Source: a virus. From it: 12,686 nucleotides of DNA. The notes below the pieces were generated by a model, which saw only the letters and a list, made by a program, of their open reading frames with translations, ran no database searches and was not told the DNA's origin. The translations under genes and the position numbers were made by a program. Shown piece after piece: positions 6,047 to 12,686 of the stretch. The stretch lies in the UHGV virus genome UHGV-0141872. One strand, written 5' to 3'. Positions within the stretch are counted from its first letter, which is position 1. Each line of letters starts with the position of its first letter.

Positions 6047-6121
<75 letters not shown>

Positions 6122-6124
6122 ATA

Positions 6125-6200
<76 letters not shown>

Positions 6201-11628: not shown

Positions 11629-11784
11629 TTACTCCTCAGGTTCGTAAGCTGTGAAGACAGCGACCTCCGTCTGGCCGGTTCAGATTCGTACCTCGCAGAG
11701 GTCTTTCCTCGTTACCAGTGCCGTCACTATGACGGTTAAACAGATGACGATCAGGGCGATTAACATCGCCTTTTGCTGCTTCAT
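11629..11784 (-). pseudogene. hokD: hok-family type I toxin gene (HokD/RelF-like) interrupted by an in-frame TGA at codon 35
   Basis: Translation MKQQKAMLIALIVICLTVIVTALVTRKDLCEVRI*TGQTEVAVFTAYEPEE matches my recollection of E. coli HokD (51 aa) except that the Arg codon is TGA (11682..11680). SD AAGGAG lies 9 nt upstream of ATG at 11784. Confidence 0.6.
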
Positions 11785-11900
11785 AGCCTGCTTCTCCTTG
11801 CCTTTCGGCACGTAAGAGGCTAACCTACATGTGTCTAGCATGAAATTGGCCTCAGATTAATGTTAAGCGTCTTGCAGGACGCGTAATGTTAACTGGGGCT
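11785..11900. promoter_or_regulatory. hok mRNA leader / mok-overlap region; expected location of the antisense Sok RNA and its promoter (plus strand)
   Basis: Inferred from the canonical hok/sok architecture (antisense RNA complementary to the leader of the toxin mRNA). An in-frame upstream ATG (MLDTCRLASYVPKGKEKQA...) is present in the leader. Exact Sok boundaries cannot be set from sequence alone. Confidence 0.3.
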
Positions 11901-11995
11901 TTTCTCTATCTGCCGTTGGTGTTCATGCCCGAGGCAGATAGCCTCAAGCACCCGCAGCCATTCTACTTAACTACCGCTACCTCGCCAATATGAAA

Positions 11996-12085
11996 TCAGT
12001 CTGAAAGGCGATCCATAAGAACAATAGCAAGACAATAAATCGCCATTACAGCTGTAATAGCCAGCGCACATTTGAGAACCAGCAC
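11996..12085 (-). CDS. Candidate small hydrophobic peptide, 29 aa (MLVLKCALAITAVMAIYCLAIVLMDRLSD)
   Basis: Found by manual translation. GTG start at 12085 with AGGAGG 5 nt upstream; single predicted TM helix. No family recognised; could be a chance ORF. Confidence 0.3.
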   Translation of the reverse strand: MLVLKCALAITAVMAIYCLAIVLMDRLSD

Positions 12086-12325
12086 CACAACCTCCTGTAT
12101 TGGACGTACACCAGTCCTGATGAATATGAGGCTATCTCGTCAGTGATTCAATACAACTATTGGGTATAGTTTCTCTGATTTTTTCTGTGGTAATGGGGCA
12201 CAACCACTAGTCACCACCAGCACTTCTTTTAATACGCAAAGTCCGCCACAAGCTAACCCCCTAGTCCGCTTTGAGCGAACAGCGGACGTTGGCCGACCGC
12301 TCTTAGCGGCAAACGCCACCAAATG

Positions 12326-12356
12326 TAAATAAAAAAGCCACCTTATCAGGTGGCCA
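12326..12356 (-). terminator. Rho-independent terminator downstream of the alpha/beta-hydrolase gene
   Basis: Minus strand: GCCACCT-gata-AGGTGGC followed by TTTTTTATTTACATTT, 30 nt after the stop at 12385. Confidence 0.6.
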
Positions 12357-12384
12357 GTTCAGTGAATCTTTAAGTTATAAAGGG

Positions 12385-12646
12385 TTATTCAGCAAAGCAC
12401 TTCCTGGCATGCTCTTCCACGAACGCCGCTACGGTTTCCGGCGCTTCAAGCGGCGGGAAGTGGTTTACGCCTTTCAGGATTTTCAGCTCCGCGCCGCCGC
12501 CCAGCACCTGCTGCAGCGCCGCTGCAAACGGAAGCGGGTTTGGCGCGTCATTTTCGCCCTGCAGAATAAGCGCTGGCGCGGTGATAGCATCATACTGATC
12601 GGCCATTTCATGATTCAGAAACGCAGCGGCATTGGCCTGCATCGAG
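12385..12646 (-). CDS. Alpha/beta-hydrolase fold protein, C-terminal fragment (N-terminus lies beyond the contig end); probably a host gene
   Basis: C-terminal translation ...ITAPALILQGENDAPNPLPFAAALQQVLGGGAELKILKGVNHFPPLEAPE... is typical of the cap/His region of alpha/beta hydrolases. GC content is clearly higher than in the prophage. The first 10 residues of the ORF-track protein (MGSEMCIRDS) are translated adapter. Confidence 0.6.
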
Positions 12647-12680
12647 CTGTCTCTTATACACATCTCCGAGCCCACGAGAC
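12647..12680 (+). other. Illumina Nextera (Tn5 mosaic end) adapter, a sequencing/assembly artifact at the contig end
   Basis: Exact match to CTGTCTCTTATACACATCTCCGAGCCCACGAGAC, followed by 6 nt that would be the start of an index. Confidence 0.95.
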
Positions 12681-12686
12681 GCTCAT

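Follow-up and report, generated by a model that had tools for sequence, protein, structure and literature searches.

A 29-codon reading frame beside hok/sok in Escherichia lambdoid prophages is very likely a gene for a single-helix membrane peptide

A reading frame of 29 codons adjoining the hok/sok locus of a lambdoid prophage is very likely to be a real gene, its product being a tiny membrane peptide with a single helix, as indicated by comparison of its alleles. The DNA analysed here, referred to as the window, is a stretch of 12,686 nucleotides from UHGV virus genome UHGV-0141872, and the features of the gene and its surroundings are listed in Table 1. The reading favored here, with a probability of about 0.6, is that the gene is genuine, that its 29-residue product is a single-pass inner-membrane peptide, and that it constitutes an autonomous accessory (moron-type) unit of Escherichia lambdoid prophages rather than a toxin controlled by an RNA antitoxin.

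Table 1. Coordinates of the small gene and the neighboring features in the window.
Feature	Coordinates	Strand	Details
CDS of the 29-aa peptide	11996..12085	minus	GTG start 12085-12083, TGA stop 11998-11996, 29 sense codons
Shine-Dalgarno sequence AGGAGG	12091..12096	minus	spacer TTGTG, 5 nt to the GTG start
Putative sigma-70 promoter of the small gene	12123..12151	minus	-35 TTGAAT (12151-12146), 17 bp, -10 CATATT (12128-12123)
Conserved non-coding spacer, cargo hotspot to small-gene promoter	12152..12283	minus	alignment
hok mRNA promoter	11960..11988	minus	-35 TTGGCG, 17 bp, -10 TAGAAT
5' part of hok mRNA and sok antitoxin region	11779..11953	minus	Rfam RF01794 (sok), 115.3 bits, E = 3e-26

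The sequence-only reading of this DNA had described a 29-aa ORF with AGGAGG 5 nt ahead of a GTG start without giving its strand; the ORF is present as described, on the minus strand. Its product, (f)MLVLKCALAITAVMAIYCLAIVLMDRLSD, is the same peptide as VLVLKCALAITAVMAIYCLAIVLMDRLSD and matches the helix quoted in that reading; written from the start of the CDS, it is fMet-LVLKCALAITAVMAIYCLAIVLMDRLSD. The minus-strand sequence over this region is, from 5' to 3', TACAGGAGGTTGTGGTGCTGGTT.... The program-made ORF list opens the frame one codon upstream, at GTG 12088. This codon is 2 nt from the Shine-Dalgarno (SD) sequence and is replaced by GTC, ATC or TAT in relatives. Because it is too near the SD and is not conserved, GTG 12085 is the right start.

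The proposal of a single hydrophobic helix agrees with two predictions. The best 19-residue Kyte-Doolittle mean of the peptide is 2.58, and AlphaFold2 run on the single sequence predicts one continuous helix over residues 2-29 with pLDDT 92. The rarity of such a pattern was evaluated over the whole 12.7-kb window, which has 340 start-to-stop ORFs with lengths of 20-50 aa. A 19-residue Kyte-Doolittle mean of 2.0 or more together with an SD is found in the small ORF and in hok only, and the pattern is therefore more than chance. A lipoprotein or a signal peptide was rejected on inspection, as neither Cys is preceded by a lipobox and so short a peptide could not yield a cleaved product.

The conservation of the frame was examined with two samples of loci. 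Nine loci, 78-97% identical to the window, were fetched by nucleotide similarity, and the frame could not bias this sample because the retrieval was by DNA similarity. None of the nine carries an indel within the small ORF, whereas the flanks carry indels, and the position of the stop is identical in all nine. The start of the relatives aligns at 12085 and is GTG, or ATG in the copies on Shigella plasmids of the pINV type. The second sample consisted of IMG/VR contigs retrieved with a non-coding 28-mer starting 86 nt 5' of the start codon. Exactly 29 codons are intact in 113 of the 114 contigs with enough sequence, and the remaining one has the whole segment deleted.

The pooled set of 212 loci contains 33 distinct nucleotide alleles, which encode 22 peptides. 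Between these 33 alleles there are 42 distinct single-site variants, of which 21 are synonymous, 21 are non-synonymous and none is nonsense; no frameshift was found. The neutral expectation is 26-30% synonymous, and the observed excess is significant (binomial p = 0.0008-0.005), with the reservation that the selection tests draw on about 42 variant sites over 84 nt and on closely related alleles, most of them more than 85% identical and only the pINV lineage strongly diverged. All replacements are conservative for a membrane helix (A/T/V, V/I/L, M/V/I/T, D/E/N). An earlier set of 22 alleles had 10, 4 and 16 variable sites at codon positions 1, 2 and 3, respectively. In that set the pN/pS of the small ORF was 0.26, the lowest among the six frames; the reverse frame sharing the third positions was also low, at 0.34. 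The most diverged comparison, between the window and the Shigella pINV copy (78% identical), gave dS 0.885, dN 0.159 and dN/dS 0.18.

By these comparisons, the frame, the start, the stop and the SD are under purifying selection. The sequence-only reading had regarded a frame that is not kept among related genomes, with no synonymous/non-synonymous pattern, as grounds for abandoning the gene. The frame is kept and its dN/dS is low, and the proposal of a real gene for a hydrophobic membrane peptide has gained comparative support.

The signals upstream of the frame are conserved as well. Among 40 distinct upstream variants, the SD is AGGAGG, GGGAGG, AGGAGA or AGGGGG at a fixed spacing, and the -10 element of the putative promoter is invariant in all 40. 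This promoter matches the consensus at 8 of 12 positions, below the 9/12 cut-off of the standard scan. Its -35 element, as TTGAAT, TTGAAG or TTGAGT, occurs at the 17-bp distance in four upstream contexts that have nothing else in common, namely the window type, the L003/L009 type, the L218 type and the pINV type, among which the sequence of the 17-bp spacer and everything farther upstream differ. The -35 element is mutated in a few alleles (L079, L080, L082 and L095) and is different in E. albertii. The predicted transcription start site is near 12116. We infer from this conservation that the small gene probably has a promoter of its own, with a leader of about 30 nt.

The conserved spacer upstream of the promoter is replaced in the L003/L009/L218-type and pINV-type loci, and it is thus dispensable for the ORF module. 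Within it lie a hairpin, GTCCGCT...AGCGGAC, and a further copy of GCGGAC, which belongs to an 18-nt direct repeat (D1) at 12240-12257 and 12263-12280; alternative pairings could form between them. Its folding is no better than that of shuffled sequences. A weak divergent promoter-like site on the plus strand, GTGATT-16-TATAGT, is located at 12143-12170 and points away from the small ORF. Control by LexA through an SOS box was considered and rejected; the only candidate seen by eye, CTGG-N12-ACAG, has a spacing unlike that of CTGT-N8-ACAG. A terminator-like hairpin at 12061-12042, inside the small ORF, is found in this allele only and is made by the ACA codon of Thr11. It was rejected as a conserved terminator, being absent from the relatives in the alignment.

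The small ORF stops 7 nt upstream of the -35 element of the hok promoter and no terminator lies between them, and hok begins 211-213 nt downstream of the small ORF in 93 of 105 distinct loci. The surroundings had been described as otherwise ORF-free DNA from hok to the host hydrolase. This is imprecise, given the short distance to the hok promoter and the conserved prophage spacer that extends to about 12283. The hok CDS of the window (hokD/hokW-type, 11629-11784, minus strand) has an in-frame TGA at 11680-11682 in place of the CGA codon for Arg35 of its relatives, which cuts Hok to 34 aa (...DLCEVRI*). It is the sole internal stop among the 93 distinct hok-linked loci, and hok may be inactivated or altered in the strain of the window.

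The remaining 12 of the 105 distinct loci have no intact hok CDS within 600 nt of the small ORF, and can be divided into three groups. The pINV-type loci retain the hok promoter and about 90 nt of the leader while hok is gone, and their small ORF ends about 290 nt ahead of the icsP (sopA) start codon, on the same strand. In the recurrent L008-type loci, everything from about 17 nt past the stop of the small ORF is replaced, including the hok promoter, and a weak hairpin with a T-rich run follows the stop. The third group (L020, L049 and L059) keeps the hok leader, with no Hok CDS found within 600 nt. The minimal unit shared by the loci spans from the -35 element to about 17 nt past the stop and comprises the promoter, the leader and the ORF. 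In the Shigella/E. coli pINV-type plasmids L004 (2725-3104) and L005 (3038-3127), the 78%-identical copy of the small gene is located in the icsP regulatory region, which has been studied intensively; the omptin gene of L005 is truncated by an IS element.

The reverse arrangement was also observed. An ST131 genome (L216) has lost the small ORF by deletion at a QueH cargo junction, an O157:H7 genome (L217) has a decayed remnant of it, and the 933W-type hokW loci do not have it. Because the ORF occurs without hok and hok occurs without the ORF, the small unit is separable from hok and dispensable. In the O157:H7 genome, that of E. coli O157:H7 strain 1130, a pseudogene labelled by PGAP as a partial "hypothetical protein" (L217 2090-2173) lies just upstream of the decayed remnant, and an alpha/beta-hydrolase is found in the cargo position of the prophage.

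The window is a segment of a Qin/933W-like lambdoid prophage with ydfU (DUF968), rem and hokD-type genes. Adjacent prophage-borne genes for tRNA-Thr(TGT) and tRNA-Gly(TCC) are present at 6047-6200 (minus strand). E. coli prophages, as well as phages mEp460, Evi, Tritos and HannyBb, resemble the window as far as about 12283-12290. Rightward of the conserved spacer, the genes of the relatives vary by locus and are found in either orientation. The cargo of seven loci (L001, L002, L006, L007, L009, L219 and L220) includes PD-T7-1, a Septu-like PDC-M01A/B pair, PDC-S39, a TPR protein with DUF262, DUF6650 and QueH. This position is a hotspot for known or candidate anti-phage defence genes and accessory cargo. 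It lies between the replication genes and the hok-rem-ydfU-rusA-Q block. Gene order is conserved, and the small gene is on the conserved flank of the hotspot, co-oriented with the early-right operon.

The prophage of the window is truncated where its relatives carry the variable cargo, the homology stopping exactly at this boundary. Beyond it, at about 12284-12648, an alpha/beta-hydrolase gene is represented by its 3' end and terminator (12336-12355). A search with this flank among E. coli genomes, phages and plasmids returned no match, and it is probably chromosomal DNA of a host other than E. coli. The last nucleotides of the window, 12647-12686, are an Illumina Nextera transposase adapter (CTGTCTCTTATACACATCTCCGAGCCCACGAGAC...), and the true contig end is near 12646-12648. 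The called hydrolase ORF of 96 aa opens with MGSEMCIRDS, residues that are an artefact.

The segment consisting of the ORF and the spacer was found at a coverage of at least 80% in 1682 of 5426 complete E. coli genomes (~31%). The plasmid matches numbered 144, nearly all of them from Shigella pINV with about 78% identity. A scan of one genome per species returned only species of Escherichia and Shigella and, in addition, a small number of short MAG contigs, which are probably fragments of E. coli-type prophages. An exhaustive phmmer search of 1.84 billion representatives revealed nine clusters, each at least 83% identical over the peptide and differing only by spurious N-terminal extensions. 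These searches point to no recognisable relatives of the small gene outside Escherichia and Shigella.

The description of the ORF as unannotated holds for RefSeq/PGAP, where it lacks annotation in every record sampled. It does not hold for a few GenBank E. coli genomes, in which the exact peptide is deposited as a "hypothetical protein" (EGI50483.1 and OSK45992.1). Scans against Pfam, PHROGs, NCBIfam and PADLOC gave no family match, and matches to CoxIIa and ATP synthase c with E = 0.07-0.3 were rejected as hydrophobic noise. A full-text literature search with fragments of the peptide returned nothing. The small ORF is not described in the accessible portions of the hokW-sokW study (PMC8621323), the Pro-SMP finder paper, a 2025 review of small membrane proteins (PMC12648545), or papers on prophage transcriptomics and defence. 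Among the six novel membrane candidates of a CFT073 small-protein Ribo-seq preprint, SMP3 and SMP7 are comparable from the accessible text, and both differ from the peptide. The small ORF is an uncharacterised, effectively unannotated gene in a known category, the small membrane proteins on mobile elements.

An accessory small inner-membrane protein ranks above a type I or lytic-phase toxin, and the latter ranks above both a cis-regulatory element of hok and a non-functional frame. The peptide had been suggested to be typical of type I toxins, and it is within their range, being a membrane peptide below 60 aa with one helix. As a toxin of this type, or as a membrane-damaging peptide of the lytic cycle, it would damage the inner membrane by depolarisation or permeabilisation, with silencing by an unseen antitoxin RNA or by prophage repression, and would act like or with Hok in induction or abortive infection. 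The length, the single helix and the short charged tail resemble TisB, ZorO, DinQ and ShoB (PMC12648545). The direct adjacency to hok/sok in 93 of the 105 distinct loci and the shared orientation with the early-right operon are in the same direction, and HokW is reported to help phage release during induction, which makes a second lytic-phase membrane peptide conceivable (PMC8621323). The RNA antitoxin expected of such a locus was sought in several ways. No promoter-like site antisense to the small ORF is present at 9/12 or even at 8/12, a screen of the sequence that a weak or unusual promoter could escape; the only plus-strand candidate is directed away. The scan gave no terminator-like site on the plus strand. 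Folding of either strand was no better than that of shuffled sequence (z = -0.28, +1.01 and +0.10), and a permissive Rfam scan of 11850-12400 gave sok and chance matches only, with no family on the small ORF. No direct repeat offering a complementary patch to a divergent sRNA was found, no k-mer of at least 7 nt is shared by the small ORF with the Sok region or the upstream spacer, and its duplexes with these two regions are no better than shuffles. An antisense or divergent sRNA was rejected on the present evidence of promoters, structure, repeats and complementarity. The short leader shows no conserved structure that would sequester the SD; the probability of the SD being unpaired is 0.03-0.50 with no structure common to the alleles, and since the hok control gives 0.54, this measure does not discriminate. 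A diverged duplicate of Hok was likewise rejected, as BLASTP of the peptide against the adjacent Hok gave no alignment; Pfam HOK_GEF (PF01848) did not match the peptide at E <= 10, nor did the toxin families searched. The apparent promoter, the consensus SD and the ORF are kept in pINV-type and L008-type contexts without hok/sok, which speaks for expression being tolerable in the absence of an RNA antidote. A toxin is the strongest of the rivals and is still unlikely, and a small membrane regulator, which the sequence-only reading had also named, or effector would fit better.

The same linkage to hok could have another meaning. Transcription from the promoter of the small gene, or its translation, might run into the hok promoter and leader and modulate the synthesis or folding of hok mRNA, through promoter occlusion or a 5'-extended hok transcript, and the peptide would then be secondary. 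The fixed 7 nt from the stop to the hok -35 element with no terminator between, the constant position of the hok start in 93 loci, and the retention of the hok promoter and part of the leader beside the ORF in pINV are consistent with such an element. It is improbable, as the substitutions indicate selection on the amino-acid sequence beyond the act of transcription or translation, the ORF persists in the L008-type loci although the DNA from about 17 nt past its stop, the hok promoter included, is replaced there, and many hok loci function without the small ORF, including 933W hokW and ST131 (PMC8621323). The frame might also have no function of its own and be open by chance or recent ancestry, or its conservation might stem from an element acting as DNA or RNA, or from an opposite-strand gene. 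The high identity of most alleles leaves little time for decay, the ORF is lost in several lineages with no obvious consequence, and PGAP calls it in none of the sampled records. An opposite-strand frame is annotated in phage HannyBb and is open in 43 of 73 alleles; it contains stops in the other 30 and was rejected as the gene. The codon-position bias and the synonymous excess, the lack of nonsense and frameshift changes in the 33 alleles, the conserved SD and start spacing, and the ORF of pINV, intact at dS ~0.9 with its start upgraded to ATG, make a non-functional frame just as doubtful, and neither a signal of RNA structure nor an Rfam match points to an RNA element. A further reading, also of low probability, places the peptide as a functional partner of Hok-type toxins or of the defence hotspot, either as a second membrane effector or as an immunity or modulator peptide tuning Hok killing or abortive infection, with possible co-option in the icsP region of Shigella.

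For the accessory membrane peptide favored here, the unit would begin with a sigma-70 promoter of weak to moderate strength (TTGAAT-17-CATATT) and a leader of about 30 nt, followed by the 29 codons, which open with GTG behind a consensus SD. Lysogens would transcribe the unit from this promoter. Read-through of the phage early-right transcript would provide additional transcription, as suggested by the shared orientation with the replication genes and Q, and the transcript of the small gene probably runs into the hok leader because no terminator precedes the hok promoter. The N terminus with Lys5 is expected to be cytoplasmic and the acidic DRLSD tail to be outside. By analogy with KdpF, PmrR, MgtS and MgtR, the helix of the peptide may bind a larger membrane protein or mediate self-association. 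The lysogen or the phage may benefit from an accessory function at the membrane, such as exclusion or the modulation of envelope functions.

The hok/sok loci are among the best-studied toxin-antitoxin loci, yet a conserved gene-like unit adjoining them went unnoticed. If translated, it would be a widespread prophage-borne addition to the small membrane proteome and a conserved landmark flanking a hotspot of defence cargo. If the peptide were a partner of Hok, a classic type I locus would have a new two-peptide architecture in about one third of E. coli genomes. Constructs or deletions of "hok/sok" or of the "icsP promoter region" may unknowingly include or disrupt the small gene. No concept is overturned, as unannotated small membrane peptides on mobile elements are an established category.

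Enterobacteria have several small single-pass inner-membrane proteins, including KdpF (29 aa), PmrR (29 aa), MgtS (31 aa), MgtR (30 aa) and AcrZ (49 aa). The small gene is similar to them in length, in the single hydrophobic helix with few flanking polar residues, in the strong SD, and in a history of being missed by annotation pipelines. Its size and predicted topology would permit their mode of action, the binding of a larger membrane protein (PMC12648545). Unlike them, it shows no sequence similarity to these proteins, resides on prophage or plasmid DNA and not on the core chromosome, and has no partner protein encoded beside it.

The short hydrophobic type I toxins include TisB (29 aa), ZorO (29 aa), DinQ (27 aa), ShoB (26 aa) and IbsC (19 aa). 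The peptide resembles them in size, in the hydrophobic helix, in the location on a mobile element, and in having a bona fide type I system adjacent. It differs from them in lacking a detectable cis-antisense or divergent sRNA gene, a patch of complementarity, membership in their families, and, judging by its predicted leader, a long structured 5' UTR. With the neighboring Hok/Gef protein of the hokD/hokW type it shares a membrane helix, the strand and the prophage segment. Unlike Hok/Gef, it is 29 aa and not 51 aa, it is without a periplasmic C-terminal domain, a mok-type overlapping frame and a Sok target, and its own putative promoter lies upstream of the hok promoter.

The morons of lambdoid phages are units of a promoter and a gene expressed in lysogens, such as bor and lom of lambda and gp15 of HK97. 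The small gene is much smaller than these, its hok-linked form is without a terminator of its own, and its expression in lysogens is only predicted. Of the features that characterise morons, its own promoter, as recognized from sequence, differing flanks and dispensability were found. Like the lambdoid morons, it is a compact unit with its own putative promoter, dispensable, placed in an accessory region and in variable genomic contexts, and beside defence cargo.
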